This document shows, piece after piece, positions 7,601-46,118 of a stretch of DNA of 64,000 nucleotides. Origin of the DNA: Cyanidioschyzon merolae (taxonomy: Eukaryota); NCBI GenBank assembly GCA_000091205.1, contig AP006499.2. One strand, written 5' to 3'. The translations under genes were made by a program, and so were the position numbers. The notes below the pieces were generated by a model. The model had not been told where the DNA came from and did not search any database. It saw nothing but the letters and a program-made list of their open reading frames with translations. Each line of letters opens with the position of its first letter. Position 1 is the stretch's first letter.

Positions 7601-8427
7601 ACGTCCCACTGCCACTAGTCATCAGCGTTCTACTGGGTCCGAGTGTCACCTGCTCAGGCACGTGTGCTTGCAACCCTGTCATTTTCAGATCTTTAGTACC
7701 GTACCACTAGTCATCAGCGTTCTACTGGGTCCGAATGTCACCTGCTCAGGCACGTGTGCTTGCAACCCTGTCATTTTCAGATCTTTAGTAACGTACCACT
7801 AGACATCAGCGTTCTACTGGGTCCGAGTGTCACCTGCTCAGGCACGTGTGCTTGCAACCCTGTCATTTTCAGATCTTTGGTACCGTACCACTAGTCATCA
7901 GCGTTCTACTGGGTCCGAGTGTCACCTGCTCAGGCACGTGTGCTTGCAACCCTGTCATTTTCAGATCTTTGGTAACGTACCACTAGTCATCAGCGTTCTA
8001 CTGGGTCCGAATGTCACCTGCTTAGGCACGTGTGCTTGCAACCCTGTCATTTTCAGATCTTTGGTACCGTACCACTAGTCATCAGCGTTCTACTGGGTCC
8101 GAGTGTCACCTGCTCAGGCACGTGTGCTTGCAACCCTGTCATTTTCAGATCTTTGGTAACGTACCACTAGTCATCAGCGTTCTACTGGGTCCGAGTGTCA
8201 CCTGCTCAGGCACGTGTGCTTGCAACCCTGTCATTTTCAGATCTTTAGTAACGTACCACTAGACATCAGCGTTCTACTGGGTCCGAGTGTCACCTGCTCA
8301 GGCACGTGTGCTTGCAACCCTGTCATTTTCAGATCTTTAGTAACGTACCACTAGACATCAGCGTTCTACTGTGTCCGAGTGTCACCTGCTCAGGCACGTG
8401 TGCTTGCAACCCTGTCATTTTCAGATC
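7601..8427. repeat. Head-to-tail tandem array, 92-bp unit x ~8.9 copies, each unit carrying a CACGTG palindrome
   Basis: The unit 'cactagtcatcagcgttctactgggtccgagtgtcacctgctcaggcacgtgtgcttgcaaccctgtcattttcagatctttagtaccgtac' recurs with exact 92-nt phase (cactag at 7613, 7705, 7797, 7889, 7981, 8073, 8165, 8257, 8349). Only a few variant positions occur (tagtc/agaca, gtaccg/gtaacg, gagtg/gaatg). The array ends about 200 bp upstream of the apyrase ATG. Confidence 0.9.
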
Positions 8428-8626
8428 GCTGCCCTAGCTTTCCTCAAGTAACGCGCTACCCCAAGGCATTCTTGGAGCGCCCCACGAGCACGAGCGCGCG
8501 ACATGTCCTATCGCCGCTTGACGGTTACGCAGCCAACGCGTTAGGGCAAGTGTGTCTCAGCTGGTGCACTGTCAGAGGGCGAGGCTCAGACGTGAACCGC
8601 CAGAGGGCTTGCTTTATGTATAGTTT

Positions 8627-23238: not shown

Positions 23239-23587
23239 CAGCACCTCGGCTGCCAGCTCATGCGGAAAGCACCTGGCTGGCAGGGCGTAGCAGGCTTGAG
23301 CGGCGACAGCGCGGTAGCATCCGCTGCCGCCTCGGCTGGGAATCGCTCCTGCCTGCGTCTGTGTTGGGCCTTCGTTCAACCAGGTACACCAGGGGCCGTG
23401 CTTGCGCTCGAGAGCGCTATGCAGGAGGAGGTGCTTTCGTCGTCCAGTGCGCACCGTTGGACTCGATGCATACTCCCGTGCTGCTTGCTGGTACGTTCGT
23501 TGCCAGCGTAAGCTGCTTTGACTGCCTGGTGTTAATGCTGGGGCAAAGGCCGGGCGTTTGATGGTGTAGTCTGAAGTCAATGCATGG

Positions 23588-23782
23588 GATCTGGTGTTTC
23601 CGGAAGCACGCTCGTTGTAGGTAGTCGTGGAATCGACGTCTGGTACGCATGAGATCTGGTGTTTCCGGAAGCATGCTCGTTGTAGGTAGTCGTGGAATCG
23701 ACGTCTGGTACGCATGAGATCTGGTGTTTCCGGAAGCATGCTCGTTGTAGGTAGTCGCGGAATCGACGTCTGGTCCCTCACG
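23588..23782. repeat. Tandem repeat, 65-bp unit x3, about 350 bp upstream of the UGGT start
   Basis: 'gatctggtgtttccggaagca(c/t)gctcgttgtaggtagtcg(t/c)ggaatcgacgtctggtacgcatga' starts at 23588, 23653 and 23718. Confidence 0.85.
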
Positions 23783-24074
23783 AGCGCTGCAGCGTTTCTG
23801 GGCGAGCTCGAGATCGATCTTCTCGTTGGGTGTATCTCGTCGCTCGATCCGACGAGCTTTCGGGTGCTGCGTGTTCTGGTGGACACTTGTCACGTCGCTG
23901 CTAGGTGCGCTGCCCCTAGTTTTCCCGAGGGGCACCACGGCTTTGTCATAGATGCAGGGGTATGAGGTAGTCGTACCGATGAGGACGCATGGTGCTGCGG
24001 CGAGTCGCTAGCGCCCAGACTCATACCCGTTTCACCACCGCTGCGGTGGATAGCAGGCCATCGACGTCAAGATG

Positions 24075-26355: not shown

Positions 26356-27853
26356 AGGCTAGTCCTGGTTTGCTCGTTCGTTGGTCGGTGCAGGCGATCG
26401 CCGGCTCGTAGGGACGGACGCTCTGCAGCGCCTGGAGCGAGGCAGAGCGGGGCAATCCAGTGTGGACTGCTGTGTCTTGGTGTATGTGCATACGTTCTTG
26501 TGTCGAATCAAGGACGGGCAGCGACAGTTGCTGCTGCTGCTGCTGCTGAAGCTGTGCGCGATCACGCTTATCTTGTGTGGTTTCCGGAACGCTTCAGATC
26601 GTAGCTGAGAGTAAATATCGGCCGTCTATGGACACTGGAATCCCTGCTTCGCTAGAAGGAGCACTTTTGATCAAGTTCTACCAGCACTGCCAGGAACAGC
26701 ACCGGGGGGTCTCCTTGCGCTTGTCTTCGAGCAGGAATCCCCGGGATCAGTTGATATTGGCCGAAGAATCCAGGTCCGTACAATCTACATCATCAACACA
26801 CGGGATTTACAGCGTTTATGCTGGAAACGTTGGGAGCGATTCGCAACTGGCACCGCAAAGATGCAGTTGGCTCTTTGAAAATGACTGAATCCGTGTCTCT
26901 GATGTATACGAATCCAGATATATTTGATGCAATCGATTCAGAGAGGTGTCTGACATGTGCCGTAGTTCAAACGTCTATGTTGCACGTGTAGTGCACCATC
27001 TCAGGCGACAGCATAGCGACAGGGCACATGGCTTGCAAGCTGGCAGCGCTATGTACTCGCAGCCTGGCGGGCCGCGTGCGGTACCCTCTCGATGCACCAC
27101 TCGTTGTCGACGGTGGCAAAGACAGGCATGTTGATTCACAGCACATGGTGTTCTTTGCGACAGCGAGGCGCAGTTGTACGTACCAGGTAGTTCGGGGCGC
27201 TCGTTCTCGATGCATCGTCGCGAATGCTAGCCACACCTGCAACCAGGTCCAATGCCCGCGTCGTATGGGCCGTTGCAGCGTCCCTGGAGAGACTGATTTG
27301 CGTACGCATCGAGACGGAGTCGCGCAGCGTTCTGCGCTCTCGCCCAATCACTGGAGCAGCATCGGAGAGAGATGAAATCATATCTTGGCGTCCTTGCTCT
27401 TACAAGACGAATCCGTCGTGCGACAGACCAGTAGGCAGCACGACGGTGCAGTGCTTGAGCATCCACTGTAGCGCCGCAGTGCAGAGGCGCTTTTCGCCGC
27501 CCAGAACTAGGCTGCAGCAAGTTCTGAAGGCGTGTCCATCTCGAAGGGAACCTGAACCCGGCTTCAGAAGCGTAAGAGCGAGCGACACCGGCGATGGTTA
27601 CTTCGTGTTCCTTGCGCATGAATTGCCACCACCGATCCGATAGTGTCGCGAACAATTAGTGAAACAGGAGGTAGACCAGCGTGTCCGTGTTACCGCAAAT
27701 ACTCAAGTCTATTGAATGCTAGATACGGATTTGGAATCCGTTTCCGCATCATTCCGAACGAGGACGATATGACCGCGCGTCTACAAGTTGAGGCTCGAGG
27801 GCGCTCGCGAGGATCCTGCACGACCGAGCCCGCTATGTCGGCTGCAGCGCATC

Positions 27854-28594
27854 TCAGAACACTGTTATCAATGCGAACGAGGTGTACCAGAGACCTACAG
27901 GATACGCCACCAGGGGCCAGTTCCCCGCAGGGATTGCGAGAACGGCAGTGAATATTCTGCTTGCCGTGCTGGTGCACCAGAGCACAGCAACGCCGGCCAT
28001 AATCGCCCGGAACGCGAGCGGTGGCACCAATAATACCAAGAACGCCAGTACCACAATAGGTAGCAGCCCGTAGCCCAGAACACTTACGATACGATAGAGA
28101 TCAAGTTCTCTACCTGCCATGAGGTTCAACACCAAGTAGATGCTAAGACAACCGACAATCGCAATACCATAGATCACACCAAAGTGTACTTTTCCTCGCA
28201 AGAGCAGCGCCATGCCCAGTAGAAAAGCGTACAGCAGGGGCCCAGCCATATCCGGTTCGTCAGCGAATGATTTTTCAAAACGGCGGAGCGGGTTGAGAAC
28301 CTGAAGGCTCTTGCGCCAAATGGCTTCAGGATGGATCCCCAGCTCTTCCAGCAGCGGTGGTTCGTCTTCTCCCACAGACGCTCCGGAGAGCGCCCTTCCC
28401 AGTTCAAAAGAGGCACTGCGGGCGTGCCAGCTCGTTGTCGCACTAGGGTGCCGCTGGGGTTCCCTAACCGTCGACCAGGCCGGGGCAACGCTCACCGCAT
28501 TGTCCTGATAGAGTGTCGACGGCCCGGTGCTGTACGGCACACTCGAGCCGCCGTAAAACTCCAAACCGTTACCTTCGCGAGCCCCGCCACTCAT
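27854..28594 (-). CDS. Yip1-domain family protein (YIPF5/YIF-like ER-Golgi membrane protein)
   Basis: N-terminal [16 protein letters not shown]..Y resembles YIPF5 MSGFENLNTDFYQTSY. The conserved [28 protein letters not shown] resembles [28 protein letters not shown]. Five hydrophobic TM segments sit at the C-terminus. The ORF-track start at 28609 is TTG; the first ATG is at 28594. Confidence 0.8.
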   Translation of the reverse strand: [246 protein letters not shown]

Positions 28595-28869
28595 CGTACT
28601 TGCCGCCAAAACAGACCCAAGTCGGAACTGTTTGCCCGTCGGTCTGCTCGTCCGTTCGTTCCGCCAATTAGAGAATATCCAGTGCTGGTTACGGGACTTG
28701 TGTTTCGGCGAGCACCAGACTCGGACCCTGAAACTGTTGGCTGTGGCGGGTCGACGCGCCCCCCCGCGGACAATACCACCTGGGCAGCGGGGCGCACGTG
28801 CACTACGGCAGCAGTCCGCGTACCGCTGCGGTTTCGATCGTCCTCGTGGATCGTCTTGTGATGTTCGTT

Positions 28870-29170
28870 ATTATGGATATGACGCTGGTAACGAAGCATG
28901 CTTCCCGGTGTTTATCGTTGAGAGAAGTATGTTCGCTTTTGGTGGCAACGCATATCCACATTCTTTCCGATCGAATGTATTTGGCTCTGCTGCGTTCTTG
29001 TCGTATCCATTTTCTTGGCGAAAAGAAGTATGCTCGCTTCTGTTGCCAAAGGAATGCCACAGTCTCTCTGATAGACGGTAGTGTATTCGGTTCTGTTGTT
29101 CGCTTCGCGCATCCATTTTCTTGGTATAGGCCAATGTCCAGGCTTCTGGTGTCAAAGCAGCTCCGCATTC
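28870..29170. repeat. Imperfect ~100-bp tandem repeats (about 2.5 diverged copies)
   Basis: Recurring 'agtatg(t/c)tcgctt(t/c)tg(g/t)tg(g/c)caa...ccattttcttgg' blocks include 'gaagtatgttcgcttttggtggcaacgcatatccac', 'gaagtatgctcgcttctgttgccaaaggaatgccac' and 'agtgtattcggttctgttgttcgcttcgcgcatccattttcttgg'. Confidence 0.5.
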
Positions 29171-29800
29171 TTTTCCGTGAGCGTTCGCCGACCATGCGAT
29201 CTGAATAATTACCCTCCAAAACATCCAGCACGATGCTCCTGTCTATTCTACAGAATCGTTATCTGGGTGCTTGGCATACAACGAGCTTCCTCGGTGCCGA
29301 CGCAATGCTTCATATTCCGCAGATGCCGGCAAATCCGCGAACTGAAACTACGCGGCTGCCTTCTTCTCATATAGGTACGGTATGCTGCTCGAATCGGAAG
29401 AGTTGCTTCGAGCCTGGAAGGCCTCCAATCAATGCACCAAGGTGTCGTTTCTACTGCAGGACACGAAGATGCACATACACGTTGCTCGATGGAAGGCGGT
29501 AACCTTTTGTCCAAATGTTGGCTTTCACCTGCACCAGCGAAGATCATGATCGAGTCCCGTTCAGCGGGCTCTCGACTACATATTTGGTTGCTGATACCCA
29601 CCACCGCGAGTCAGTGTTCTCGCCTGAGCAGGATTCTCGCTGTTGACACGACGGATCCTGACTGCATTCGATGATTGAGCAGGTCCCTTGTGTGGATTAC
29701 GGCCGCAACGGAACCCCGCAGAGCCTGAAGGAATGCTTGGTCGATGCACCGATTACAACATTGTGAAGAACAACGTCCAGACAAGTGCGAGAGATTGGTT

Positions 29801-30080
29801 TGCATGCGCATCAACGAAAGCCTGCTCATAACCTATGCATTTCGTGGTGGTATCGGAGCGAGTTTCAAAATACCTCTGGGGCGTCTTCCGGCAACAGCGA
29901 CACGGTATCGGAGGCCGCGCGTCCGTACGCGGCGTATTTATCAACGAAAGCCTGCTCATAACCTATGCATTTCGTGGTGGTATCGGAGCGAGTTTCAAAA
30001 TACCTCTGGGGCGTCTTCCGGCAACAGCGACACGGTATCGGAGGCCGCGCGTCCGTACGCAGCGTATTTGCCCATGCAGC
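29801..30080. repeat. Tandem duplication, 140-bp unit x2
   Basis: 'tcaacgaaagcctgctcataacctatgcatttcgtggtggtatcggagcgagtttcaaaatacctctggggcgtcttccggcaacagcgacacggtatcggaggccgcgcgtccgtacgc(g/a)gcgtattt' occurs at 29801 and 29941. Confidence 0.75.
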
Positions 30081-30515
30081 GTGAGATATCATCGGTACCG
30101 GGGTCAAGCTAATGATTTCGCGAGCCTCATTGCATGACGATGTTGTGCAACGAACGGATGTGCGTCAGATGACTAGGCCTTTGATTCCGGATGCCTGCAA
30201 AGTTTTCGGCTGCACTGCAGTCTAGCTTACGCGCTGCCTTATGCCGGGGCGTACTCGTCATGCCTCTGTCGCCGGAGCGACACAACGCCGTGGAGGTTCA
30301 GCTGCTGCGCGACACCAGAATCACCATCCATTTGGTATATTTTTGGTGACTTGTGGTTTCATTCCCCAGACAAGCCCACTGGGGAAGCGATCCAGGTAGA
30401 TCGGGTTCTACGCGACGCCAAAAGAACAGGACGCCGTGTCATTGGACGCTGGGAGCTCGCCCGCATGCATGAGCGCTCACATCACTGGACGGTTGCTTTG
30501 AGAGTTTCAGAAAGT

Positions 30516-31109
30516 TTACGTGCGAGCGGCTGTTGCTCCGTCCGCGAGACGCCGGCCCCGAACCGCACTGCGGAGACTGCGACCGTCCGCTCGTAGAACG
30601 ATACCCGTCTCGGACGCCTTTGGAACAGGTTCCTGCTGTTTTGGCTGCAGCCACAACTCGACGTGACACGGGTTGCTCTTATACGCTGTGATTCTACCGT
30701 GCGCCCTGTATGTTCTTCGCCTTCCCTTCATGGCCTGATTGACTTGAATATGCCGAATTACCAAGGTATCCGTGTCGAGTCCCTTGGCTTTGGCGTTTTC
30801 CTCGGCGTTGCGTAGCAAATCCAGGAGGATCTCGCAGCTCTTCTTAGGCCATCGACCCGAGGCGCCAAGAATGCCCCACTGCTTCACCTGAGCCTTCCGC
30901 CCAACGCCGTAGCGGTAGCGCACAAACGGCACGATCTCCTTCTTCGCGATCACGTTCTGCAGGTAAGTTTTCGCTCGTTCCAAACGCATGCCCTTGATCG
31001 CAGCTGCAGTCTCTCGCGTGTTCTTAAAGTGCACCCGCAGAGATGAACCGCATGCGAGCGCAATATTATCGCGGGACTCTGGTAACCGACTGTACTGGTG
31101 TCTGCCCAT
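30516..31109 (-). CDS. RPL17: 60S ribosomal protein L17 (uL22)
   Basis: [47 protein letters not shown]......VPF.RY..GVGR.AQ.KQWG...[49 protein letters not shown] is near-identical in pattern to metazoan RPL17. The ATG is at 31109, since the upstream ORF-track codons precede the conserved N-terminus. TAA at 30516-30518. Confidence 0.9.
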
Positions 31110-31479
31110 GGTGACCAGCAAACGGGCACCGCAACGTCCAGTCCTCAGTTGCAGCCTCCGAAGCAGCTTACTCAAACGTACGCTAAGGTTGTGCCAGGCA
31201 ACGCGCCGCTGCGTCCAAGCCATCGCGCCGGCGTCATCGCCGAAATATGCATATATTCGTACAAAACGCTCTCGTGCCATGAAGCACAAGCGCCACCATA
31301 CCCCTTTCGGGCCGCTCCGTTCATCATGAGAAACAAGTACCTAATATAGGACGTTTCTGTACGCGCAGCTCTACTACGCACCCAGCGTTTGCCCGGCGCT
31401 CTTACGGACAGGTACGCCAGCGCCCGGCACCGATGGTGACGACTCCTATCTCGTACGCTAGAGGCGCTGGAACGCGCTG
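31110..31479. promoter_or_regulatory. Compact divergent intergenic/promoter region between RPL17 (minus) and the Pyridox_oxase_2 gene (plus)
   Basis: Only 370 bp separate two head-to-head start codons. This is inferred from the gene arrangement alone; no specific motif was validated. Confidence 0.35.
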
Positions 31480-32127
31480 ATGCGAGACTCCCCGCACTGG
31501 TGGATTCAGCTTGAAAAGTCTCTGCAGCGGAATAGAGTCCATGCTTTTGCACGCTACTTCCAGGTGGCCACAGTCCGACCAGACGGTCGCCCCGCGAACC
31601 GTACTGTAGTTTACCGTGGTACGGTGGAGCGAGGCAAGGACGCTGCACCCTACGTTACCTTCGTATCAGACCTGCGCTCTGGCAAGCACAAAGACTTGGA
31701 GAAGTGTACGTGGTGTGAGATCTGCTGGTACATGCCCGTTACACGTGAACAGTACCGAATCACTGGCTGTGCAGAAGTCGTCGGTGCTTCTGGCGCAGAC
31801 GCTTTCCTCAGAGAGGCTCGGAAAGAGGTCTGGTGCCGACTGACGCCGCCTCTGCAGGCGCCGTTTCTGGCGCCAACCCCAGGTCTTCCGCTACGAGTCG
31901 CCAGCGCCTCGAAACCAGAGATCAAGCTCGACGATGCAGGTGTCCCTGATTCGTTCGGTCTCGTGCTGGTTTTGGCAACTCGTGTGGATTACTTGCAACT
32001 CGCGAAATCCAATGGACCACCACCACATCGAACTTGTTACTATCGGAATATCGGAGCGCCAGATGTCAAAGATGCGAACGCTGCAACAGAAGTTGAAGTT
32101 TGGGAGATGGAGGCACTGCAGCCGTGA
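31480..32127 (+). CDS. Pyridoxamine 5'-phosphate oxidase-related FMN-binding protein (Pyridox_oxase_2 / split-barrel family)
   Basis: Pattern W...L...........A...QVATVRPDGRPANRTVVYRGTV.........FVSD.RS.K..DL......EICWY......QYRI.G matches the PNPO-like 'Pyridox_oxase_2' small proteins. ATG at 31480, TGA at 32125-32127. Confidence 0.65.
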   Translation: MRDSPHWWIQLEKSLQRNRVHAFARYFQVATVRPDGRPANRTVVYRGTVERGKDAAPYVTFVSDLRSGKHKDLEKCTWCEICWYMPVTREQYRITGCAEVVGASGADAFLREARKEVWCRLTPPLQAPFLAPTPGLPLRVASASKPEIKLDDAGVPDSFGLVLVLATRVDYLQLAKSNGPPPHRTCYYRNIGAPDVKDANAATEVEVWEMEALQP

Positions 32128-33544
32128 AAAATTTGCGAGTTTTCTGCGCAGCGTACCACGCGCGTCTTCGTAGATGCGCTCTCCCACAGAGCCACGCATG
32201 GACACGATGGACCTGCTCTTGAGCTGGCTTGATAAACTGCTATTGCGCCGTCGGGGCGGATGCACACATGAGCCAGGGGGCCAAACACATCGTTCCGAGG
32301 CAGGCTGCGCTGGAGCATCAAGGCTCCGAAATCTCTTACCATTCTCGAGGCTATCGTCTCGAGCGTTGCGAAACGACAGCTCTAGCGCATCCAGCGTCGT
32401 AGGAAGCACGCAAGAGCGGCTCAGTATGGAACCTGGGTCGCTGGATCGGACCTGTAGCTCCACGGGGAGGACCATTTCGGAGCTTGTGGGATAGACGGGT
32501 ATTTGAAGGATGTCAAATTTCTCTTCTTTGGTCGGCGGCAGGACTCGCGTGACCGGGTATTCAGGTCAGATCCGTGCCTGTCGTTCCATGCGAAAGACTG
32601 GCGGGCACGCGGGTCGCTCCAATGACCGACATCGCCTTGTTCTTTCAGCGGTGATTACGCGTGCCTGCGAGCCAGGCGCTGGTCTTGGTTCCAAAGAGCA
32701 ACTTGGCCCACAAGAGCCGGGGATAGGCGGTTGCAGCCATCCAAGAGCATACAATGTAATGAAAACATTTCACCAAATTACCGTACGAGTAGCCTTTAGG
32801 ATGATTGGTTTCGACCAACAGGCAGCTTTCAATGCAATGCAATGCAATGTCAGGCACGCTCACAGGACCTGACCACCGCAGTCAACAGTGCTCTGTTGCC
32901 GGGCGTTTATCTTAGAGCCTTTGCTATCAGAACCTTTGCTGTTATTCCCTGTTCCGATCCTGTTTTTAGTGTATGCCTCGCTTCGGCTTGCGGCGATGCA
33001 CTATAACACGGCTGCACTCGAATGGTCCCCCAGTGGATCAGGCCCATGCGTCGAGCGCGTCGTGAAAGACGGCCACAAACACGAATTCCTGCAACACTTT
33101 CCAGACCAATGCTGTATGCGACATGCCTTCGCAGCACGCTCCTCGTGAGCCAGTCTTATGCCTGGTGACCGTTGCTCCCCGGCGCATACCGACATCTTCT
33201 ACACCAGATGCGGATCATGCTCCAGGCGCTTTTCGAGCGCTCATCCGATCCTCATTCTGCGCAAGTGCGTCAGGCTACCGCAAAATATGCGTATGGAATG
33301 AAAAACATCCATACATTCATGACCAAGCTCTCAGCATACTAAACTAGCGTTCCTCAATCGTCCTGAGGGTTTACGCGGATTCCCGTTCCTTTCTAACTAG
33401 ATATGTGTATTTTTCAGCCAGTCATGTCGAGTGATTGAAGTCGAGAGAGCGCACTCCCAGCTTTCACGATTCTGCATACACGTTACCAAGTTCGGCATAC
33501 ACCGTTCCTCTTGACTGACGACCAGCTCCGACGGTAACAGAGTA

Positions 33545-34078
33545 TCACTGGCTTTTAGGCCGGTTCACCGGCAGATGCGGCTTCTGTAAGTACTGCTGGA
33601 TGCCGCCCTCCATATCCGCTATGACTTTGTATCCCTTTTTGGAGAGCTCCTCAGCTGCCATAGCACTACGTCTCCCAGAAGCGCAGTTCACGATTAGTTT
33701 CCGTTCCAGGTTACCGCCGGTGAGCTTCTCAACCTCACTCAAAAAGTTCGGATTCGGTACCATTTTGTCTCCCTGCTTCAGCATGTACGGAACGAGCACA
33801 GAGTCTGGTGCGTGCACTTCTTGGTATTCCTCTGGAGTGCGAACGTCCAAGTGCAGGTCGCACTCGCCACACTGTTTCCGCCGGTGCGCCTCCTCCGGTG
33901 AGATTCGCTCTACAATCATTGCGAACGAACGAAACCGCTGGAATTGGGGTACAATGCCCCTGCGCAGCAAACCAGTGTATCCCCCGTGCGTCGAGCAAGT
34001 AAAAGCCTTTATCCGAGTGCTCGACTCGTGCGACAACCTTCCCCAACGAGAGACGCTGTAAAGTGTCCCCAAGAACAT
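33545..34078 (-). CDS. Single-domain rhodanese / thiosulfate sulfurtransferase-like protein, with a possible N-terminal targeting extension
   Basis: The rhodanese fold has LDVRTPEEYQEVHAPDSVLVPYM...G.MV.NPNFL.EV and the catalytic loop CASGRRS (CX5R type), then MAAEEL...GYKVIADMEGG. This resembles plant STR16/Sen1-type proteins. ATG at 34078, TGA at 33545-33547. Confidence 0.8.
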   Translation of the reverse strand: MFLGTLYSVSRWGRLSHESSTRIKAFTCSTHGGYTGLLRRGIVPQFQRFRSFAMIVERISPEEAHRRKQCGECDLHLDVRTPEEYQEVHAPDSVLVPYMLKQGDKMVPNPNFLSEVEKLTGGNLERKLIVNCASGRRSAMAAEELSKKGYKVIADMEGGIQQYLQKPHLPVNRPKSQ

Positions 34079-34588
34079 TGTCGCCGTGAATAGTCAGTGT
34101 CCGGAGTGCCAGTCCCCGCGGCAGCGTTTCTGGACCGTCGGCAGCGCAGGGCAACGCCCCTGCAGCAGCAGCGCCTGATGGCCGCAGAGCAGCGCGCTGC
34201 TGCTGCTGCTGCTGCTTCTCTGGGAGCGCTCAGGTACGGCATAGGTTGCAACATCCTCGTGGATCGAAGCCTGCATCTGTATCTATGTCGGGTTTCAGAT
34301 AAAAGGGGAGCGTTGAATGGATCATTCTGCTCCTTCATTCCAAAATTCCGAGCGATTTTGGGTGCACAAAGTCGACAATTGATGTTCGTCAATATGTGGT
34401 TACGGATTCAGACGTAGGTTTGGGGTTATTGGTCGTGCTTGCTGGGTGGATCCGTCGCATCGTTGCCGGTGACATGGGGTTACTTCACGGGAATCCAGAT
34501 GATTCGCGGCGCTGCTGACCAAAATCTCCTCAAATAAACGATATCATTATCGAGTTTATAGGTTGAGGCCTCCGCTCTTCTCCTGTCG

Positions 34589-36160
34589 TTGAACGTGGCA
34601 TGCTTGATGCACACACTCTTCGAGTTTTTGAGCTTTCGTCCCGATGAAGACTATCGACGTCGTCTCTTGGACTGTTGTTCACAAGCTCATGCCGAGACAT
34701 CAGTGATGTCCTCACGTCAAATGATCATCGAGTCCTTCCGAAAGCGAAATCCGCGTCTCTTTGTAACCACCGACAAGGCGATATTCCACAGCAGCGTGAT
34801 ACCTTTCACGGAACATGCTCCTAAAGGCTTCCATTTCTTCTGTTCCCATCGAATAGGATCTCGCAATCGCACTTGATTCATCGTGGCGATCGCATCGCGT
34901 GCAGCGTAGACAAGTCAGAATTTCTCTAAGACTTGTCCAGCATCGATTTGCCTCCCCGTACTGGTTTCCAGGTAACAACATCGCGTTCCGCAAGCCTTTA
35001 TTGGGATGGACAGCTTGCGGTTGCGCGTGCAACGCACAGCCTAGTCGTCGGTGTGATTGCTTCCAAGGAACACGCAGGCTTCGTAGATAGCATCGGGTGC
35101 GGAAGCAGACGAGGGCGTCGTGCATAGTCTTCTGTTCTCGCCAAGGGCATCCACCCAGCGATAAGGTAAGCTCGTTTGCGACAGAGCGCGGCCCTCAGTG
35201 GATGGCAAGGTGTGTTAGACATGCGGGAACTCCAGATCACATCAGGGTCATCGCTGTGAAGCGTGCACCGACGCTGTACACCCTGAGACGATAAAAGCAA
35301 GCGAAGCGCAGATAACGAGTTTCCCCAGTGCGTGCAATGCGTCGACAACGAAAGGGACCCGAAATCCGCCATCAATATTCTTCGACTGCTGACAGCGATG
35401 CCACAGGCGCGATAAAGACCGGCGTATTCGGCACCAGGAATAAGAGGTGGCTGAAGAACGCAGTCACAGAGAAATCCCGCAAAGACTGCTCTTATCGTGG
35501 AGCCAATCCTGAGCGAAGGCAGAGACCTGCATGCATCGCCCGCGTTCTTTCGCGGACTCAGAGAACTGACCCGCCACTATCAGGTTGCGATGGTTTGCGA
35601 CGAGGTTCAAACTGGCGTCGGCGCTACTGGTCGTTTTTGGGCACACGAACACTGGTCCGAGGGACTCGAGAAAACGGGACAAGGCGTTGGCACCGGCGCT
35701 GCGGAGCTCGCCCCAGACATGGTGACCTTTGCGAAAAAGATGCAGGCGAGCGGTTTCTTTTTCAAACCAGAGTTTCTGCCACCGCAAGCGTTTCGCATCT
35801 ATTCAACTTGGAGTGGCGACCCGTTGCGTGCGCTGCAGGCAAGCGTCATCATTGACACCATTGTCGCTGATCACTTGGTTGAGCGCGTCCACAGTGTCGG
35901 GGACTACCTCATCCATGCGCTTGCGGACTTGAATCACCCACTTGTGGAGCGCATTCGTGGACGAGGAACATTCATTGCATTCGATTTACCGAGTCCAGCA
36001 CAAAGAGATCATTTGCGTGGCGAAATGCGAAATCAGGGTGTTCTTGTAGGCAGCTCGGGGGGGCAAAACCGTACGCTTACGCCCCGCACTCATCTTCGAC
36101 AAGCATCACGCGGATATACTCCTGGATATTCTGGCACGCGTTCTCAGGCACATGCCCTGA
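34589..36160 (+). pseudogene. 4-aminobutyrate aminotransferase (GABA-T, class-III PLP aminotransferase) locus, disrupted. The 3' half is intact except for one homopolymer frameshift; the 5' half is collinear but split across at least three frames with stops.
   Basis: 3' segment (35464-36057, frame 1): KTALIVEPILSEG..HYQVAMVCDEVQTGVGATGRFWAHEHW..PDMVTFAKKMQASGFFFKPEF..IYSTWSGDPLRA..RIRGRGTFIAFD, strongly GABA-T-like. At the G7 run 36057-36063 the frame switches. The next frame reads GKTVRLRPALIFDKHHADILLDILARVL* (compare human [29 protein letters not shown]) and stops at 36158-36160. Upstream, homologous pieces occur in different frames: GFHFFC (ends 34846), NNIAFRKPLLG (34965-35006), SLVVGVIASKEHAGFVDSIGCGS (35035-35106), ..CIVFCSR.. 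and HAGTPDHIRVIA (35220-35255). The spacing from HFFC to IVEPI (662 nt) matches the intronless protein distance, so the frame changes are not introns. Confidence 0.6.
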
Positions 36161-38544
36161 ACTGGCAAGGCAGCTGTGTTGCCTTCACGTCTGCTTCGTA
36201 ACCGGGACCCGGGTCAAGGCAACATCGTTCTCTGGGGCGCGTACCTGCTGCCGTCGACGAGTCACCGTACACGTGCTACCTGCAATGAAAGCTTCATGCG
36301 AGGATACTCTATCTATACACATGTGATCGATATTCTTTGGTGCAGATGCCGGACGCTTATCAGAGGAGCGGCCCAGGCGTGCCGATTGCGGAGCTTTTGC
36401 TCGAAAGCTACCAATTCGAAGTCTCTGGACGCGTCTTCGCAGTTGACGAACGAGACGACGTGGGTGCTTGCTGGGCAGTGTTTCCCATCGGGTCTGTACC
36501 GCTTGGCGCCGCTCCTGCATATCCCGCGGAAGCGGCTGTGCTCACGCCAAGAGATTACCCGTACGTCTGGGCAGCAGTTCGATACCCGCTGTCGATGATC
36601 TGGTTGGAGCGTAGAATCGCCAAGCGCGGTTTCCTTGTGACGCAGCGATGACGCATCGTACTGGCGCTCCCAGTGACAGAGGCTTGCGGAACGCACACGC
36701 TCGGAGCTAGGCAGGTGACAACGCCGTCCCGTTGCGAGCGGCAATATAGGTGCCAACCTAAAGCAGCGGATGCCAGCGTGCGACAGAGAGAGGCCCGTTT
36801 GCCCGTGTTTTCTACTTGAAGATTCTCTGGTTACAGGCATGGTACGTAGGAACGATGATCCGAACTCGGCACCGTCAGATGCGCCGCTGCCGCTAATAAC
36901 TCGGGAAGAAACCTTCGTTTCTTGCTGCGTGCTTCAGGGTTCTTGCAGCGCCTCTCCCGAGTTCCGCACGGGTACTCAGATTTGACGAGCGAACGACCCT
37001 CGAGCTGCAGCGTCTACCGCAGACATTGTATAGAGTCATGGCCCCATTGATGTGTTTCTGGAGAGGCTTGCTCGGGGCCATCCGCAAAAACTGGCGTTGC
37101 ACCAAACCCATGTCAGAGTAATATGACACCGCTTCAGTCAGCTGACTCTAGCGAACACATTCAAGTTTAGATCGCGTTTTGCGATCATCGATGCCAGAAC
37201 TTGGCCGTTTTTCCTTCGACTGCTTCTTTTAGTACGTCGTATCCCCGGCTTGAAATGCGCTGGTATCTCGTTGCGGTCCAGTTCCGTTTATCAACAGTGA
37301 GAGGATACTGATGCCAGCGCTTTAGTACATATTTCGTCGGTTCCGACAATTGTTGACCCCTTGCATGCACAGGCGAACGTTGTGATCGTTTCCGAGTTTC
37401 ATCTGCTTTGTATATAGCCTCGGCGCTTGCATATTAGCGGTGCCACGTTCGTGGGGGAGGGGTCAGGTATTGGCCTACGTCCGCAAGGGTGCCGCCTCTT
37501 TCTCCAAGCACTGGCCCTAGGTGCGTGAAAGCTTGGTTCACCGAACGGCGCATGCCCGTGAAAAGCACTGACGGGTACCCTGAATATCCATATTTGTTTC
37601 CGCTCTCTGTGCCGTATCCTAGGACCATGGACTCCTACTGCTCGGCGATTTCCTCGACAAGAACGGTGTCCGCTGCATGTGCAAGCACACACTGTTACAG
37701 TCGGCGGAGCGTTTATGGAACGCAATGCTTTCCATGATGAAATGAATGTCGGAAGAAAAACCGGGACCGTCGATCAACTCGAGAAATTCGATCCTCCTGC
37801 GCTAACTTCGTGCAAACCGGCGAATTACTCCCTATTTGAAGTGATCGCTGCGGTGACTCAGTTCCGAGTCCAGGAACCTTATCTATTCGAATAGAGGAGG
37901 TGGGAGCGTCTGCGAGCAAATGCGACAAGTAGTATCATGCCGCTGTCGAATCCAGTTCCGTCGATAGCCATAAAGCGAGGCGGATGCATTTTTTGAACGG
38001 AGTCGATTATTGATCGTGACAAGCAGAGTGATGTTTTAGGCACGAGCTTGTACACAAACCACCAAGGGATGATGTCGCGTTGTTTTCCTCGTCGATAGAG
38101 CGGTACGCATTGATGCGTCCACGGGTTGGCGTGCATCAGAAAGGTCGCAAACCCGAAACACGCGTGCATTGAGTATGCCACATGTAAGGAAAGGACGGGA
38201 ACGAAGCCTGCAGATATGGATTTGATATTGGTATCCGTTATTTAACAAACCCCTTGGTGGACGGTGTCGCGAACCCTCCTGTTGACGATGATGAAACGAG
38301 CGGCTTCTGTCGAGCGTTGCATGCGCTACGCGGAATACGTGTTCGAGAACCCAAAACTGCTTTTATCCATAAGCCCTTATTGCTGCATATCGATTGTCGA
38401 GGCTGTACATGATAAACATTTTTCGGAAAAAACAATGACTAAAAGAGAGCGAGCAGCACAGCGTTCCATATGTATCGAGGACGGCAGCAGAGTCGCCATT
38501 CCGAGATAGGCGCCTCGGTGCTGAGGTCAATATCAAGGACGTGA

Positions 38545-39714
38545 ATGTCGACATTGTTCATAAATATACACTACGGAACATATATCTACCAGGTTCCACA
38601 AACAGGATTATGCGGAAACAGATCGCCTCGTCGCGTTCTGAACTGGCGACAAGTTTGTACACCGCGAAAGCCTCAGCGGCTTTCAGGTCGTTATGGATTC
38701 GCTTGTGCGCTAAAGAGCCCGCGCTCAAGTTCAGCGTCGCGTGGTTGTGGTCTCATTTTCTGGCCTGTGCACTGGGAGTCTTGGAATGGCGCCTGCACCC
38801 CTTCATCTTCATCGTCCACGACTTGCTTCATGATTGTACGGCCTACGTCGAAGGCAGTCCCGCAGCGGCAGTTTGTGTCTGCGCTTGTAGAGCAGGTCCA
38901 GGCACTGGCTGCGGTTCAGCCTGCACATCGGCGTTTACGAGACGATCGTGGTAACCGATTTTATCTCTTTGAAGGACCGGAAGCGCGACCGCTGCCCTCC
39001 GTGACATCAGTGCTATCCACGATTGCGAAGCCGGCGCTCACCACCTGGAGCCGAAACACGGCGCTCGAGGCTATGCGCGACGCGCTTCTTCGCAAGGCCG
39101 GGAAGAGCATCACCAACGAGATTCTGGAACAGGCTCTGCAAGAAGCGAAGCAGCAGCCACGAGCACTGGCGGGGCGGGCAGCGCAGCTCGGCATTCGCGG
39201 ACACGAGGCCTTCGGTCGCGTATTGAGCGGTCTAGGAGCGAGCAAGCCTGTAACTGCAGAGCTTGATCAGACAGTAAGCAACTTTGAGCGCTGGTGGAAA
39301 CATTCTGGGTATGTGCTAGCGTGCTCAGAACTGGTCGTGCGGAGTGAACGCTATGGATACGCTGGCCAGTGTGATGCGATTGCAGTGCGGCTGAACGAAG
39401 CCGTCCGAACAGCGGACGAGTCATCATCGCGACCGAGCGCAAGTCTCGCGGTCTTCGATTGGAAAACAACCTCAGCCATTTATTCAGAGTATGCGCTCCA
39501 GGCGGCTGCGTATGCAAAGGCGTTGGAGGAAATGAGCCACGGTACGTTACATGTACACGAAGCGTGGGTCGTTCGCTTCGGGAGAATGGACTCTGAGCCG
39601 TGTTTCGAAGCACGCCAAGTTCGTGATATAAGCGCTGCGTTCCTTTGCTTCCGCGCTGCGCTCATCCTTTTCAACGAGCTTGGCGAGACACTATACAATG
39701 ATAAAGGTGGCTGA
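38545..39714 (+). CDS. PD-(D/E)xK nuclease of the MGME1/Cas4/RecB-nuclease-domain type (candidate mitochondrial genome maintenance exonuclease homologue)
   Basis: Ordered nuclease motifs are LPSVTSVLS (motif I), GIRGHEAF, YAGQCDAIAV (catalytic D), LAVFDWKTTS (D/ExK) and QAAAYAKAL (QxxxY), the PDDEXK_1 signature. The basic N-terminus is compatible with organellar targeting. ATG at 38545, TGA at 39712-39714. Confidence 0.7.
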   Translation: MSTLFINIHYGTYIYQVPQTGLCGNRSPRRVLNWRQVCTPRKPQRLSGRYGFACALKSPRSSSASRGCGLIFWPVHWESWNGACTPSSSSSTTCFMIVRPTSKAVPQRQFVSALVEQVQALAAVQPAHRRLRDDRGNRFYLFEGPEARPLPSVTSVLSTIAKPALTTWSRNTALEAMRDALLRKAGKSITNEILEQALQEAKQQPRALAGRAAQLGIRGHEAFGRVLSGLGASKPVTAELDQTVSNFERWWKHSGYVLACSELVVRSERYGYAGQCDAIAVRLNEAVRTADESSSRPSASLAVFDWKTTSAIYSEYALQAAAYAKALEEMSHGTLHVHEAWVVRFGRMDSEPCFEARQVRDISAAFLCFRAALILFNELGETLYNDKGG

Positions 39715-42700
39715 CCTTTGTTGGTGCATCCCTTGGTGCGCTTTCGTAGGGTGCGAGGCGGCGACGCGGTTCTTTTTGGAGCTTGTTCTGATTGTTCACA
39801 ACGCGAGCCAAGTTCGAGCGTTTTTGTTTACGTCTCTATCGAGCTTTGGCAGCGCGATTGCGGTTCAGAGGACCGTAGTATATATAGAGATATTCGTTGG
39901 ACGCTCGTTGTTCATGCATGAAGTGCGCACACGGCTCTTTCCAGTCTAAGCAGGTGACGCTGCTTGCAGGGTTCGGGTAGCCTCCCGTCGCGCCGGCGAT
40001 CGTTCGATGCACCCAATGTGCGTTCCTTCCGATTTGGAAGAAATCATGCTGGTTGATGATTTTTTTTGCAGACGATCCAGCTCTACGCGGCGATAGACTC
40101 GGCTGATCACGTCACTAAATACAATCCACTGGATATGCTGCATTCCTGCTGATTAGGGCTGTCGCTTCCTTGCAATGCTTCTATGATTATTCTAAAGTTG
40201 CGCATCGTTGAATTCTCCGTGATGCAACGATCCAGAGACAGAGCTCAATATCCATACACACGTCTCGAATGGAGCCGCGGGGTCTGAGAAAGCCATCCGC
40301 TGGTGCTGCACAGAATCCCGGCCTCGAGGGAGGCCTCTTCATGGAGCGCAACCAGGATGGCTTATTAGATTCTCGCGGTAGACAGCTCTTCATCCTGTGA
40401 GATATTTCGCTACAGGTTGATAAGCCGTTTTTCGTCAACCCAATCTACTGCTCATGCACTTTGCGCACTTCCATGAGCGCCCAGAATGCACGTTGCCCCT
40501 GCTACAAGGGCGACCTTCTGAAAGTCAGCCAGCGCACCTGTCATCAACACCACACATCTCAATCGATCCATCGGTATACTTTCCAGTAGTATCGCATGGA
40601 AGAACCTTAGCGCTAGAGCGTAAGCACTTCGCGGTCCTCACGTGTCAATGCTGGTTCGTGGGCGCCGCATCGCTCTTTGTATAAAACAGAAGAGCAAAGA
40701 AATGTGCCACACTGGTGTGCTTTTTTGGAATCCCTCGTACAAGACACATGCCTCGCTTTTTAAGGCTGGGCTTGCCCTCTATTCGGAGCAGGCAGGACGT
40801 TGCCTCATGGGATGCAGACGGCATCCAGTGCCCATGAGTAAAAAGAACAGCATCGAAGCACTTACCAGCAGCCATAGAACAATTTCTTTCCCCTCTCCTG
40901 GAGGCATTGAAAAGGGTGAAAGGATCCCGTATTTTCAAAAGTTTACCTCATGGGCGGAGGGGGCCCGCGAGCTGGACGAGTCTGCCGGGCTCGTGCTTCA
41001 TGCTCGCCCCGGTGGCGGGTGCCTTGACGAGACCCGAGCAACTAGCCCGCAACGCAGCTCACTCCGGGACTGGCGGTGGTTAGGCTGTGTCTGAGCGTCA
41101 ACTTGGTCGCGGTAATCTCCTCGTATATCGCTTTTCGCTGCCGCAGGCAGTAGGTCTGTGTGCGCAGCGTGCAGGTTCCCAGAATGATGATGAAACCCGA
41201 TTCTGTGACTAGTGAACCGCACCTCGAGTCCACGCCCTCAATGATATGGTAAAGACGTTCTCTCTCCGTGCTAGGACTGTATTGACGCTATATGCTCTAT
41301 CGAGGAGGATCAGGGCAGGTACTCGGCGCACGATAGGACGTACGATAAGACCTGCACATCCGAGTGGAAGTATAAGTAATGGAACTTTAAAGTTCAGTGT
41401 AGCAGATTGGAAGCGTTCCCGAATGTCAGTATCCATCCCGCTGTAGGGAATCCATGGTAAACGTAAACGATTTTTTTGACAAAAATATCTGATGCCCTCA
41501 CAGGCATTCGATTGCTGTCTGTAGCCGATAATCGCCGGCCTAGTGCGCAGCACCTGCATCCCAGCGCGATGAGCGGCGCTCGTAGGGCCGGCATCCTCAC
41601 TGGTTTAGCAAAGCAGTGCGTGTGTTTCCGTGGTGCGTCAGCAAAAGAGCAGCAGGCGCCTATGCGGGCGTATATGGCATATTTGGCGCCTCGGTGAAGC
41701 CTGTGAGCGAACCAGTCTCTCAAAAGCCAATTCTGGGATGTTCGTGGTGGTGGCGGCCAGTGTACCTTTCAGCTGTGGAGCGGAATGATGGACGCTCTCC
41801 GGCACGCCGATAGCTATCGCGCAACCGAGGCTGCCTGGCCTCTGTAAACGTTCCGCCTATGAAAAACCTTCGCTGCAATACGTTCCTTCAGGCAGGCATT
41901 GCTGACGAGCGCTATTCTGAGAGGTCAGCTCGCGCCCTGTAAAATTCAAGCGAGTACGATATGCGCTACTTGATGGATCCGATATCGGGAATCGCACCAC
42001 TAGGCTGTGATTTAGCAGTGGCGCATACTCGCTTTTCGAGCAATTTGCTGCCGTGTTTCTCATTGCCAGCGCACTTTCAACTCCTATTCGAGTGAATTTC
42101 TAGCGAAGCGACGGCTACACGTTGCATGCATGGATACAGATGATTGCTTGACACGAATTCTGCCCTCGGCCGTGTGCAAACGCTGTTACCATGGAGAATT
42201 TCCTACAAGTGTCCATGAATACCACTGCTTCCGCATACGCTCTCGGTAGGCTTTGAAGAGATATTTTTTTCACAGAGGCTTCCAAAAGAGCATTCTTCGT
42301 AATTCCTCATAAAACAACGACACCATCGGTGCGATAGTTCACGCTTCCGCGGAAATCCCATGCCAAATTCCAACTTCTGTGCCGCATGATGAAGGCCGCG
42401 CCGGTGGCCATCGCTGCGGCAGTGTGGAGCGGCCCAGTTCCGGCGAGCACGAGGGAACCACAAAGCCGCTCCGCCGACGAGCGGAGGCCAAGCAACGACT
42501 GCAGCGGTTGTGGCGGCATATCCGGCTTTCTAGCCAGCGCCGACGTGAAGCCCTGTCATCCAGTGAAACCGGCTCGCCGCATCCTGGTTACGCCTCCGCG
42601 CCACTGGAAGACAAGTCCCGGGTGAGTGATGCCTTGAGGTGCACGGAGCGATTTCGGGCTTGTTCAACACGGTTGCTAAAAGGAGTCAGGCATCTGGGGC

Positions 42701-42895
42701 ATCTCGATGGGGTGTACCGTTCGCCGCCCATTCATCATCGCAAAAAATAGCGGTGACAGCATGCCCTGATCGCCTTGCGCATTGGAGAACTTTTGAAAAG
42801 GCGTATGGAATTCTTTCGACTCAAGTGTGTCGCACCCGTGCTGCGTGTAATCGAATGCTTTTTGGAATGATTAGAATGCGACCGGTACCCAGACG

Positions 42896-44255
42896 CAATA
42901 TACCGTATAGATCGTAGACGAATTGCCTCTAGGATATATTCTGTACTGCACAGTGCAAAGGAGGACTTCATTGCTCCCTCAGATCAGTCATATTACAATA
43001 CTCAGAAGGCCGAGGAGCACCGAAAGAAACAAAAGTATGCGATCCTTGCGAAATACGGAAAATCGCAAAGCGCGCTTGCTGTCAGTGGTGGAAAACGACC
43101 CGTTGAGCGCGTTACGTAAGGCAAAAGCGACGATCGTAGCTACTGCGGGCGTCCCTGTTTCTCACCAGCTTGTGCGCCAGTTCCTGAAAGCATTAGGATA
43201 CAGTCGCAAGAAAGTGTTCTACTTCAGCCTGCAGTCAACCCCTACCGATATTGCAGCTACGGTGTTCCTGGAATGTCCCGATTGGTATGAGGCACCGCAA
43301 CGTCGCTTTATTATTTCAATCGATGTGACTTCCCTCTGACGAAACGGTCGGAGCGTACATAGGAATTCGTGATGCAGGAAGCCCGTTGTGTGCCCAATCC
43401 ATTTCGAGGAGATCGAGGACATCATCTTTTTCTAGCTACCGTGGTCTGATTTAGCGGCCTCAGTTTCAATCGTAGAAAAGAATCGCGCAACAGCGCAAAG
43501 CCCTCTTTCGAATCACAGAAGACGTTTCACTCGATGTCTGACGATGTCCTTCCACTGGACAGCATGGTAAGCCACCATTCCCATTGCGTTCGAGCCGTTC
43601 CCGCTCCTATCGGGGTACAGCTGCTTTTCATTCCTCCGTTCTGTCCGTGGTTCGACCCCACCAAAGCAGTACTGGCTATCGTGAGACTTGATGCGCGCTC
43701 CACTGGGAGCATCGCTGAATCGCTCAGCACAAGGTGACAAACCAAGGTACTTCGTGTTTCTTATGCAAGTCCTTTTCTTTTTCCGGAAAAGGACTTGCCT
43801 ATGGGCACAGAGTAGTGCGTTCATATGAAGAAATGAAAATTCTATAAGATGAGCCACGGTCTACGCTCCAGAAGGCCGAGATGGAACTAAGCCAGCATAG
43901 CGCTTCTGTGATAGAAACGTACGGCGAGCTGACAGAGCAGCACTTGACACAGAAGGCACGAGTTCGAGGACTCCTTGCACTGACGAATCCAAGCAGTTGC
44001 AAGAAACGCATCGAATTCGTGAACGGGGACTCCAACGTTGCTATCGAAATCAGGAGATAGGCGATGGTGAAGACGAGGCCCGAAGAGCGGATGCAATCCA
44101 TCTTCGTGAAGCACCCTCTAATGCTCGAAGTGTACAGGGATAAACTGAAACCGATAGCAGGCAACCGGTCAAAAAAGGGTGGGAGGCATCTGCAGGTGGA
44201 TATTCATCTACACCACACGGGCGTGAGACATTGTTCGTTTCACTGATCGCTTTGC
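42896..44255 (+). mobile_element. Degenerate Tc1/mariner-like DNA transposon relic, copy B, retaining recognisable transposase motifs
   Basis: The ORF at 42923-43339 has the Tc1 transposase architecture: ...LSVVENDPLSALRKAKATIVATAGVPVSHQLVRQFLKALGYSRKKVFYFSLQSTPTDIAATVFLECPDWYEAPQRRFIISIDVTS, compare Tc1 ...ARKNP..SARQLAAE..VSVTTVRRIL..GRSARRKPF.S..N...RL.FA..H..W....W..VIFSDES. A downstream frame has LLFIPPFCPWFDPTKAV, resembling the catalytic LEWPSQSPDLNPIE region. It is collinear with copy A. Confidence 0.65.
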
Positions 44256-44359
44256 AGATGCGACCAGATCGATACCCGCCTGTATTTTGACGTTGTTTTT
44301 TGTCTTCATAGCTGCGCAAAGCGGTTTTTTTGTTTCTGGGCGAGCAACGTGAACGACAT

Positions 44360-44920
44360 ATGCCGGCAGCTACAAGAAACAAGTCTGGAAAGGCGGGGCC
44401 CGCTAGCAAAGCCGCTGTCGACCTACACCCTGACTCCAAGCCTGAGCACAAGACTAGCAAAGCCAACTCAGGTGACTACCGTGACGTGGTGGTGAAAACT
44501 GACGAAAACCAGGAAACGAGCCTTCGCAAACTAGCTGCAACTGGGCCCATAGTGGTTTTTCTCGTCCCCAAAGCGAACACGCCTGGCTGCAACAGGCAGT
44601 ACGAGTCGTACACACGCAACTACGAGCGGTTTACTGCCCTAGGCGTTCGCTGCTTTGTCCTTAGCAAAGACAAGCCAGAGGCGCTTGCACGCTGGCGGGC
44701 GAAGTATCAGAGTCCAGTCCCTGGACTCTCGGACCCGACACAGAACCTCATTGGAAAACTCAAGGCTCGCAAACCACCCGCGAACACAATTAGATCACAC
44801 TTTATTTTCGCAGAGGGGACCGCGGACAAGCTCGCAGAGGCGATTCCAGTCTCGCCTGACAAGTCATGCGAGATTGCGCTCAAGTCCTTGGAAGAACTCG
44901 GTATAAAGAAGAAAGCCTGA
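44360..44920 (+). CDS. Peroxiredoxin Q / BCP-type thiol peroxidase with a Lys-rich N-terminal extension (Dot5-like)
   Basis: GPIVVFLVPKANTPGCNRQYESYTRNYERF..LGVRCFVLSKDKPEALARWRAKYQSPVPGLSDP is collinear with PrxQ/BCP (VVLYFYPKDDTPGCTKE...F...G..V.GIS.D......F..K...PF.LLSD). The peroxidatic Cys is present in a TPGCN context. The ORF-track start at 44330 is TTG; the first ATG is at 44360. TGA at 44918-44920. Confidence 0.8.
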   Translation: MPAATRNKSGKAGPASKAAVDLHPDSKPEHKTSKANSGDYRDVVVKTDENQETSLRKLAATGPIVVFLVPKANTPGCNRQYESYTRNYERFTALGVRCFVLSKDKPEALARWRAKYQSPVPGLSDPTQNLIGKLKARKPPANTIRSHFIFAEGTADKLAEAIPVSPDKSCEIALKSLEELGIKKKA

Positions 44921-45122
44921 GTTCTTAGACTATGTCCGATGTATTCTGGGCGACTAGCGTGGGCAGATGGTGAAGGCCGCGTTCCGTGCCGTCCATAATG
45001 GGTTCGGCGGTGCTCGTTTCCGTTCGCCATCAGTAATATGCCTCGCTCATTACCAGAAGATGAGCATTTTGTGCTCTGCATGCTCGAGAGACGCTGGGAT
45101 CTGGCGAGACCCCATCACATTC

Positions 45123-45136
45123 AGAGAGAGAGAGAG
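45123..45136. repeat. (AG)7 dinucleotide microsatellite
   Basis: 'agagagagagagag', read directly. Confidence 0.8.
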
Positions 45137-46118
45137 CACTGACCCCGGTCAACCTGCCGATGACTTGGCGGTGAGCGCTTTGGCGCCGGCCTGGAGCGTT
45201 CAATAAACGATGTATCTTTCGCACCGAGTGCTTGTCATGGACACGAGCGAGCGGTATCCTGCAGATCTAGGCCAATGCACCCGTTCATGGTACATGGATG
45301 CACGCACCATCAACGTTGAAACAAATCCACTTCGATGAACCGAGTCAAGTTGCGAATGGAACGATACGCCTGCGTACAGAATACGCCCGAGAAACCGATA
45401 GCTTCCTACTTTCCCGCTCACTCAACTAGTCAGCCGGATGATGCACGCCTTGTTCAGCCGCGTCACGTCCTGCACGTCTGCCGCTTCGACCGGCAAACAG
45501 TACGCGCTGCACGCATCGTCAGCGCTAACAGGTCGCTGCGGTCTGCCAGCTCCAGCCCAGCTCCAGGTGTCACGTGGACGTTCCATGCTGTCAAGATTTT
45601 CAGCTCCAGTTGTCCACACGTCCAGATGCGGAGCCTCCGCACGCTAGAGCTACCGACGATTTCGTTCTGCTGCTCATCGAGAAGGCCCCCCGCGACCCAG
45701 CACACCTCAGAACTACACGTTCCCGTTCATGTGCACAGGATGTGGCAAAAGCGATCAAGCCTTGGTGTCGGTCTACAGCGGTACGAGCACTGACGATGTC
45801 CTAGCACGCTGGCCAAAAGCGTCTGTTGGGTCGTACTCTACCCTCGCGCATGTCTAGCATAGACATACCTTCATGGAGCGAAGAATGACGGCCCTTGGAC
45901 TTCAAAATTCAGCGCACGGCACAAGAGCGAGGCGGGTGCGATCGGCACTGCGGCGACGGAGGCGCTCAGTGGAGGCTTGGTGCCCTCCTGAGCCGTTTCA
46001 CGGCGTGGTGCACTGCAGGACGCGATCTCAGCTTTACAGGGGGACATTAGTGTGTGCTTTCGACGAACGCTGGGGTTCCTTGTGAAAAGCTTACGTGTTT
46101 TTCGAAGCAGTTTAGAGC

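Follow-up and report, generated by a model that had tools for sequence, protein, structure and literature searches.

Results and discussion

Near one chromosome end of Cyanidioschyzon merolae 10D lies what is very probably a non-functional, non-processed pseudogene, the remnant of a GABA transaminase (GABA-T) gene at its ancestral position. A 1,068-bp deletion and a later frameshift, together with an intact copy on another chromosome, make the locus an ordinary duplicate pseudogene.

The stretch of DNA analysed here, the window, comprises 64 kb of intron-poor eukaryotic DNA with ~55% G+C and both strands coding, and forms the terminal part of a 1,232,258-bp chromosome. Its end reads AATGGGGGGAATGGGGGG, with two copies of the telomere repeat AATGGGGGG at positions 63983-64000, matching the repeat reported for C. 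merolae (PMC1955436). The window is thus terminal, placing the GABA-T relic ~28 kb from the chromosome end in a reference genome that was finished to 100% (PMC1955436). A trypanosomatid, oomycete or apicomplexan origin was rejected on the basis of the Sec24 hits and of exact protein matches to C. merolae. Five ORFs of the window are identical to 10D proteins, all on the 1,232,258-bp record, and the following genes are among these exact matches:

apyrase, BAM82281.1
33545..34078, minus strand: rhodanese/Din1-like gene, BAM82288.1 (Pfam PF00581, E 3.6e-14), the upstream synteny anchor
Sec24, BAM82292.1
58421-60118, minus strand: dolichyl-phosphate-mannose protein mannosyltransferase, 565 aa, BAM82295.1

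The relic coding sequence

Positions 35494-36160 correspond to codons 334-554 (221 codons) of a eukaryote-type GABA transaminase, the last 40% of the gene. Tblastn with nine GABA-T queries, eight database proteins and a human sequence, placed the C-terminus in two frames, at 35470/35488-36084 in one and at 36059-36154 in the next, with E values of 1e-47 to 1e-58. After removal of one G, the repaired peptide covers positions 193-403 of the 403 positions of Pfam PF00202 (E 7e-53), and it is 42-49% identical to GABA-T of fungi and animals. An earlier note on this DNA had described the last ~230 codons as GABA-T almost residue for residue; the C-terminal match is borne out, but its length is 221 codons, and agreement at nearly every residue extends to the C. 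merolae copies only. With the repaired C-terminus as query, a word-indexed protein search yielded nothing but fungal fragments of ~50% identity; a 99%-identical cluster (P0317) and the 77-84% identical orthologues described below escaped it, and its negatives were not used. The locus is composed of the following elements:

34633..35493, plus strand: upstream non-coding part of the duplicated GABA-T unit
35491..35496, plus strand: deletion junction 35493/35494 with CTT microhomology (GCTCTT vs GCACTT)
35494..36056, plus strand: relic coding sequence in the original frame, codons 334 to ~521, with DEVQTG and TFAKKM present and with G343R and L508R
35590..36201, plus strand: annotated CDS of 203 aa, 'similar to 4-aminobutyrate aminotransferase' (BAM82289.1 / XP_005538325.1 / UniProt M1VAU6), exact match to 10D
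36057..36063, plus strand: G7 run
36064..36160, plus strand: last ~32 codons of GABA-T (KTVRLRPALIFDKHHADILLDILARVLRHMP) and native stop (36158-36160), now out of frame, located by tblastn
36161..37000, plus strand: downstream non-coding part of the duplicated unit

Aligned with the mitochondrial 4-aminobutyrate:2-oxoglutarate aminotransferase, a class-III PLP aminotransferase (pig/human ABAT; PDB 1OHV, 4Y0D), the relic matches the C-terminal 40%. It shares with that enzyme RLRP, DEVQTG and the PLP-lysine motif, TFAKKM in the relic and TFSKKM in pig GABA-T; for the catalytic PLP-binding lysine and the DEVQTG aspartate we assume the roles established for 1OHV. Unlike ABAT, the relic has no start codon, presequence or residues 1-333, carries G343R within SEGGD, and has a +1 frameshift before the last 32 codons. 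Invariant across the intact copies, the outgroups and pig GABA-T, the SEGGD motif reads SEGRD in the relic (GGA to AGA at 35521). The relic lacks the complete ORF that characterizes PF00202 enzymes, spanning the N-terminal segment and all of the PLP-binding large domain, owing to the deletion of codons 1-333 and the frameshift at 36057-36063, and on this basis we predict that the relic protein cannot form the ABAT fold. The annotated BAM82289.1 begins at an internal Met and its final 46 residues are an out-of-frame translation; this 'protein' is an ORF-calling artefact on the relic.

A single deletion removed the 5' part of the gene

Scanning JGI metagenomes with the C-terminal peptide yielded a 61.5-kb contig, L001, which is 99.2-99.3% identical to window 26554-46162 in two blocks split by extra DNA. 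This extra DNA completes a 554-codon ORF, a full-length GABA-T with an N-terminal extension. Base-level comparison reveals that 10D lacks L001 8939-10006, a segment of 1,068 bp that consists of 69 bp upstream of the first ATG and codons 1-333. L001 retains a SNP typical of the gene copy at the window locus (copy A) only 3 nt from the breakpoint and then runs directly into the 5' coding sequence, indicating that it is not a k-mer chimera.

The identical junction is found in four contigs from four JGI samples (L025, L026, L027 and L030), all without the G7 frameshift; L025 (32 kb) is collinear with window 25602-46162, and the other three also span the junction. Among the near-identical proteins of the cluster is one of 189 aa, which is encoded on contigs of several JGI samples and two Logan assemblies. 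Since the junction recurs in independent assemblies, and a microhomology of 3 bp cannot collapse an assembly, the deletion is a biological event that predates the divergence of 10D from the wild strains. The earlier note had offered either an inactivated gene or a locus-specific assembly problem; an inactivated GABA-T gene it is, and an assembly problem can be discarded for the main lesion, given the four independent contigs with the same junction.

The intact paralogue and the duplicated unit

An intact paralogue, for which a search of the genome had been proposed, does exist in 10D: BAM82378.1 (486 aa), located on a 1,253,087-bp chromosome, aligns end to end with the pig GABA-T structures at E 3e-117. 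The context of this other copy (copy B) was read from 99%-identical wild contigs and 10D protein accessions. In L032 and L034, both of which end inside the GABA-T gene on its upstream side, the gene is followed by purple acid phosphatase (PAP), thioesterase and GDPD genes, and the 10D orthologues of these neighbours are BAM82377.1 and BAM82376.1. Both contigs align with window 35488-37000 and then continue into the PAP/thioesterase/GDPD context, so that homology with the other chromosome stops sharply at 37000, the position at which the contigs L028 and L029 also end. The duplicated unit of ~3.4 kb thus comprises 861 bp upstream, the gene and 840 bp downstream, with its left end (34633) set by a single short contig, L031. 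Co-duplicated non-coding DNA on both flanks (861 bp and 840 bp of homology) and an intact paralogue, BAM82378.1, are both hallmarks of a duplicated pseudogene.

L031 is itself unusual, as AT-rich unrelated sequence (2822-3176) begins ~60 nt past the GABA-T stop, and the reading frame (P0327) also runs on through this stop; the contig is probably a metagenomic chimera. Comparison of copy A with the copy-B-type L031 reveals 22 differences in the 861 upstream positions and only 6 in the next ~1,800. Half of the upstream mismatches (11 of 22) are concentrated in the last 90 bp before the breakpoint (window 35402-35490 vs L031 939-1027), and divergence on the right side is ~0.3%. This step in inter-copy divergence coincides with the deletion breakpoint and is not predicted by a simple one-step deletion. 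Non-coding DNA of the outgroups does not align near the breakpoint, leaving the mismatch cluster unpolarised. The step may reflect the edge of a conversion tract or a repair scar, or else ectopic gene conversion, with copy B on the other chromosome as donor, may have restored some deleted alleles, which now count among the 'intact' ones.

The window holds the ancestral locus

An intact Aminotran_3 gene, divergent from rhodanese and 77-84% identical to the C. merolae protein, is located between rhodanese and Sec24 in three relatives:

L022: JGI metagenome contig, Sec24 86% identical
L023: Cyanidiococcus yangmingshanensis
L024: ENA metagenome contig

The PAP locus of Cyanidiococcus holds no GABA-T. 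With three distant relatives carrying the intact gene beside rhodanese and none at the Cyanidiococcus PAP locus, we regard the locus in the window as the ancestral one and the gene on the other chromosome as a duplicate that arose in the C. merolae lineage.

A very improbable alternative reverses this direction: the gene on the other chromosome would be the original, and only its 3' portion would have been copied into the window. Near identity of the relic to the 3' part of the intact copy and the sharp end of homology at 37000 would both fit such a partial duplication. However, it does not account for the outgroups, which have the intact gene exactly here and, in Cyanidiococcus, no GABA-T at the PAP locus, nor for the 861 bp of upstream homology kept to the left of the junction. 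Moreover, L001 has an intact allele in the same chromosomal context, with the copy-A SNP 3 nt from the breakpoint excluding a k-mer chimera.

Gene order and spacing around the locus also differ between the lineages. In L024 (3910-9414 vs window 17461-23886) UGGT lies on the minus strand between GABA-T and Sec24, and in C. merolae it is found ~11 kb upstream of rhodanese, which is a local rearrangement between lineages. The spacer between rhodanese and the relic measures ~1.4 kb in the window and includes a short (GCT)n/(CAG)n repeat at 34197-34216; in L022 and L024 the spacer is ~0.4-0.6 kb long.

Shared and private lesions after the deletion

Secondary lesions were compiled as a site-by-site haplotype table with codon effects across the contigs, and they fall into three groups:

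All deletion alleles: GAG to GAA, silent; GGA to AGA (G343R), turning SEGGD into SEGRD
Wild deletion alleles only (L025-L030): GAA to TAA at codon 357 (equivalent to window 35563); R360H; Y362F
10D only: three silent changes; L508R; D523G; the frameshift

A remnant released from constraint is expected to show just this pattern, in which alleles with the same deletion carry different disabling mutations. Measured against the functional homologue, the locus has been disabled by the 1,068-bp 5' deletion and the +1 frameshift, and in the wild alleles by the nonsense change at codon 357. At the sites of codon 357, R360H and Y362F, 10D has the sequence of the intact copies, a hint of mosaicism or of conversion between the gene copies. 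P0321, a wild full-length GABA-T variant, has the same L508R as the 10D relic along with a D-to-E change near the C-terminus; hence, L508R may be a segregating polymorphism rather than a product of decay.

It is very unlikely that the truncated ORF, which encodes 203 aa in 10D and 189 aa in the wild alleles, is expressed and has kept a residual role or gained a new one, for example as a regulatory partner of the GABA-T dimer or as a regulatory transcript. It is annotated as a gene, the retained upstream DNA may hold a promoter, and between the internal Met and the native stop the wild deletion alleles encode the same amino acids as the intact copies. At a divergence of ~0.6%, however, this lack of change is not significant. 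In addition, residues 1-333 are gone, and with them the presequence and the bulk of the large domain, the 10D frameshift replaces a conserved C-terminal strand, and an Rfam scan of 33-38 kb matched no family. Substitutions in the relic are too few for a dN/dS estimate.

The G7 run

In 10D the G7 run (36057-36063) reads GGGGGGGC, compared with GGGGGAC in nine of nine related contigs, whether deleted or intact. The change combines an A-to-G substitution (D523G) with one extra G, and the resulting +1 shift puts the last 32 codons out of frame. Both the one-nucleotide shift at this run and the continuation of the conserved C-terminus in the next frame up to a stop had been noted earlier, and both hold. 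Equally correct was the remark that other large genes of the window are free of frameshifts: they are uninterrupted, and the other 1-2-nt indels between 10D and L001 all lie outside known genes. The proposal that six G's would mark the intact state was mis-specified, as the ancestral sequence is GGGGGAC and not G6.

The G7 insertion is seen in the reference assembly only, and exact look-ups of variants of the 10D relic, both frameshifted and unshifted, found none. The extra G could be a homopolymer miscall of a true G6, against which stand the finished state of the genome and the position of all other small indels outside known genes; the verdict on the relic would not be affected. We give hardly any credence to the broader view that the whole lesion is an artefact of the 10D reference, with a real, intact gene and with the missing 5' part and the G7 run both in error. 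Miscalls are typical of homopolymer runs, the G7 state is confined to the reference, and the look-ups provided no independent 10D sequence. Yet the junction is shared by four contigs assembled independently from different samples, a 3-bp microhomology is unable to cause an assembly collapse, and the deletion alleles bear disabling mutations of their own. With the reference finished to 100% (PMC1955436) and the remaining small indels relative to L001 all avoiding genes, at most the one extra G could be an error.

No 5' half of GABA-T upstream of the junction

The earlier note had placed a 5' half of the gene, collinear and scattered over at least three frames, in the stretch upstream of 35494. 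The counterpart of window 34589-35493 in L001 is 8034-8938, where the DNA is non-coding and lies upstream of the gene. Within this stretch, 34633-35493 is 99.4% identical to L001 8078-8938 and 97.4% identical to L031 170-1030, and both of these counterparts stand upstream of an intact gene copy. Tblastn with the nine GABA-T queries against 34589-35490 gave a best E of 0.37. The C. merolae 333-residue N-terminus and the 1,068 deleted bases have no match in 34589-35493 or elsewhere in the window, which also excludes a rearrangement or split gene with the N-terminal half moved to another part of the window.

We further aligned GABA-T N-termini to 34589-35490 by frameshift-tolerant protein-to-DNA alignment and compared the scores with those of dinucleotide shuffles:

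Human N-terminus: score 43, shuffle mean 46
Fungal N-terminus: score 41, shuffle mean 43
C. merolae N-terminus: score 70, shuffles 54 +/- 8, with 5 of 100 shuffles reaching 70
Positive control (3' relic): score 457

None of the three N-termini stands out from the shuffles. The ORF that contains 'HFFC', a peptide at window 34832-34843, is also found in L001, ahead of the intact gene. As the same upstream DNA precedes the intact L001 gene, the 5' peptides reported earlier are chance resemblances. Accordingly, tblastn with GABA-T proteins, suggested as a means of counting 5' frameshifts, has no 5' homology to count them in; the 5' part is absent through one 1,068-bp deletion.

That a full-length gene decayed in place, with its 5' half still present at intronless spacing and broken over three frames by many small indels, is barely conceivable: a few short look-alikes near the expected spacing, such as HFFC, and the slight excess of the C. 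merolae N-terminus over its shuffle mean (70 vs 54 +/- 8) are outweighed by the tblastn result, by the lack of any match to the species' own N-terminus and deleted DNA, by human and fungal scores below their shuffle means, and by the presence of the same DNA upstream of intact genes in L001 and L031. Furthermore, the 3' part is ~99% identical to the intact copies, making decay of the 5' part beyond recognition impossible over the same time scale.

Proposed history and significance

We hypothesize that duplication placed a unit of ~3.4 kb, the gene with ~0.9 kb of upstream and 0.84 kb of downstream DNA, beside the purple-acid-phosphatase gene of the 1,253,087-bp chromosome, where the new copy, BAM82378.1, is intact. 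On this view it was only afterwards that the single 1,068-bp deletion between two CTT triplets struck the original copy, which lost 69 bp of upstream DNA and codons 1-333 and with them its start codon, its presequence and the greater part of the PLP-binding large domain. The event looks like microhomology-mediated end joining or replication slippage. As the duplicate would have taken over the function, what was left of the original would be free to drift, gaining the shared lesions and those private to each allele.

The locus resembles duplicated (non-processed) pseudogenes in that two copies are present in one genome, flanking non-coding DNA was co-duplicated, and there is no signature of poly-A or intron loss. 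It also resembles them in that one copy was disabled by a deletion and then acquired further independent lesions. In contrast to the usual case of a duplicated pseudogene or of relocation, the dead copy here is the one at the ancestral position. Intact (L001) and deleted (10D, L025-L030) alleles both occur in wild samples, so the loss does not seem to be fixed. The C. merolae genome is noted for minimal redundancy. Tentatively, and with less than even confidence, the locus can be read as a gene relocation in progress, in which GABA-T was copied to another chromosome and the ancestral copy near the chromosome end is being lost while intact and deleted alleles persist.

A pseudogene of this type is ordinary, and the main use of the result is a correction of the annotation rather than an opening to new biology. 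Public databases list BAM82289.1 / XP_005538325.1 / M1VAU6 among the proteins of a model alga, and the entry should be marked as a pseudogene; in metabolic models of C. merolae, a single GABA transaminase (BAM82378.1) should be counted instead of two. The locus also offers a small, well-dated case in which a gene was duplicated and the original copy was then lost, and wild hot-spring populations carry alleles that have decayed to different degrees. A literature search for the locus, its accession or the metagenome identifiers found nothing relevant.

Two further features of the window were observed. A seemingly perfect tandem duplication with a 130-bp unit (2.0 copies, 99% match) occupies 29810-30069, and L001 has the same. 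Clustering at 90% identity groups the 565-aa mannosyltransferase BAM82295.1 with another sequence of 565 aa, which the 10D annotation places on two other chromosomes (BAM80644.1, BAM81152.1). Such near-copies fit the shared subtelomeric elements that have reportedly been described for the C. merolae genome.
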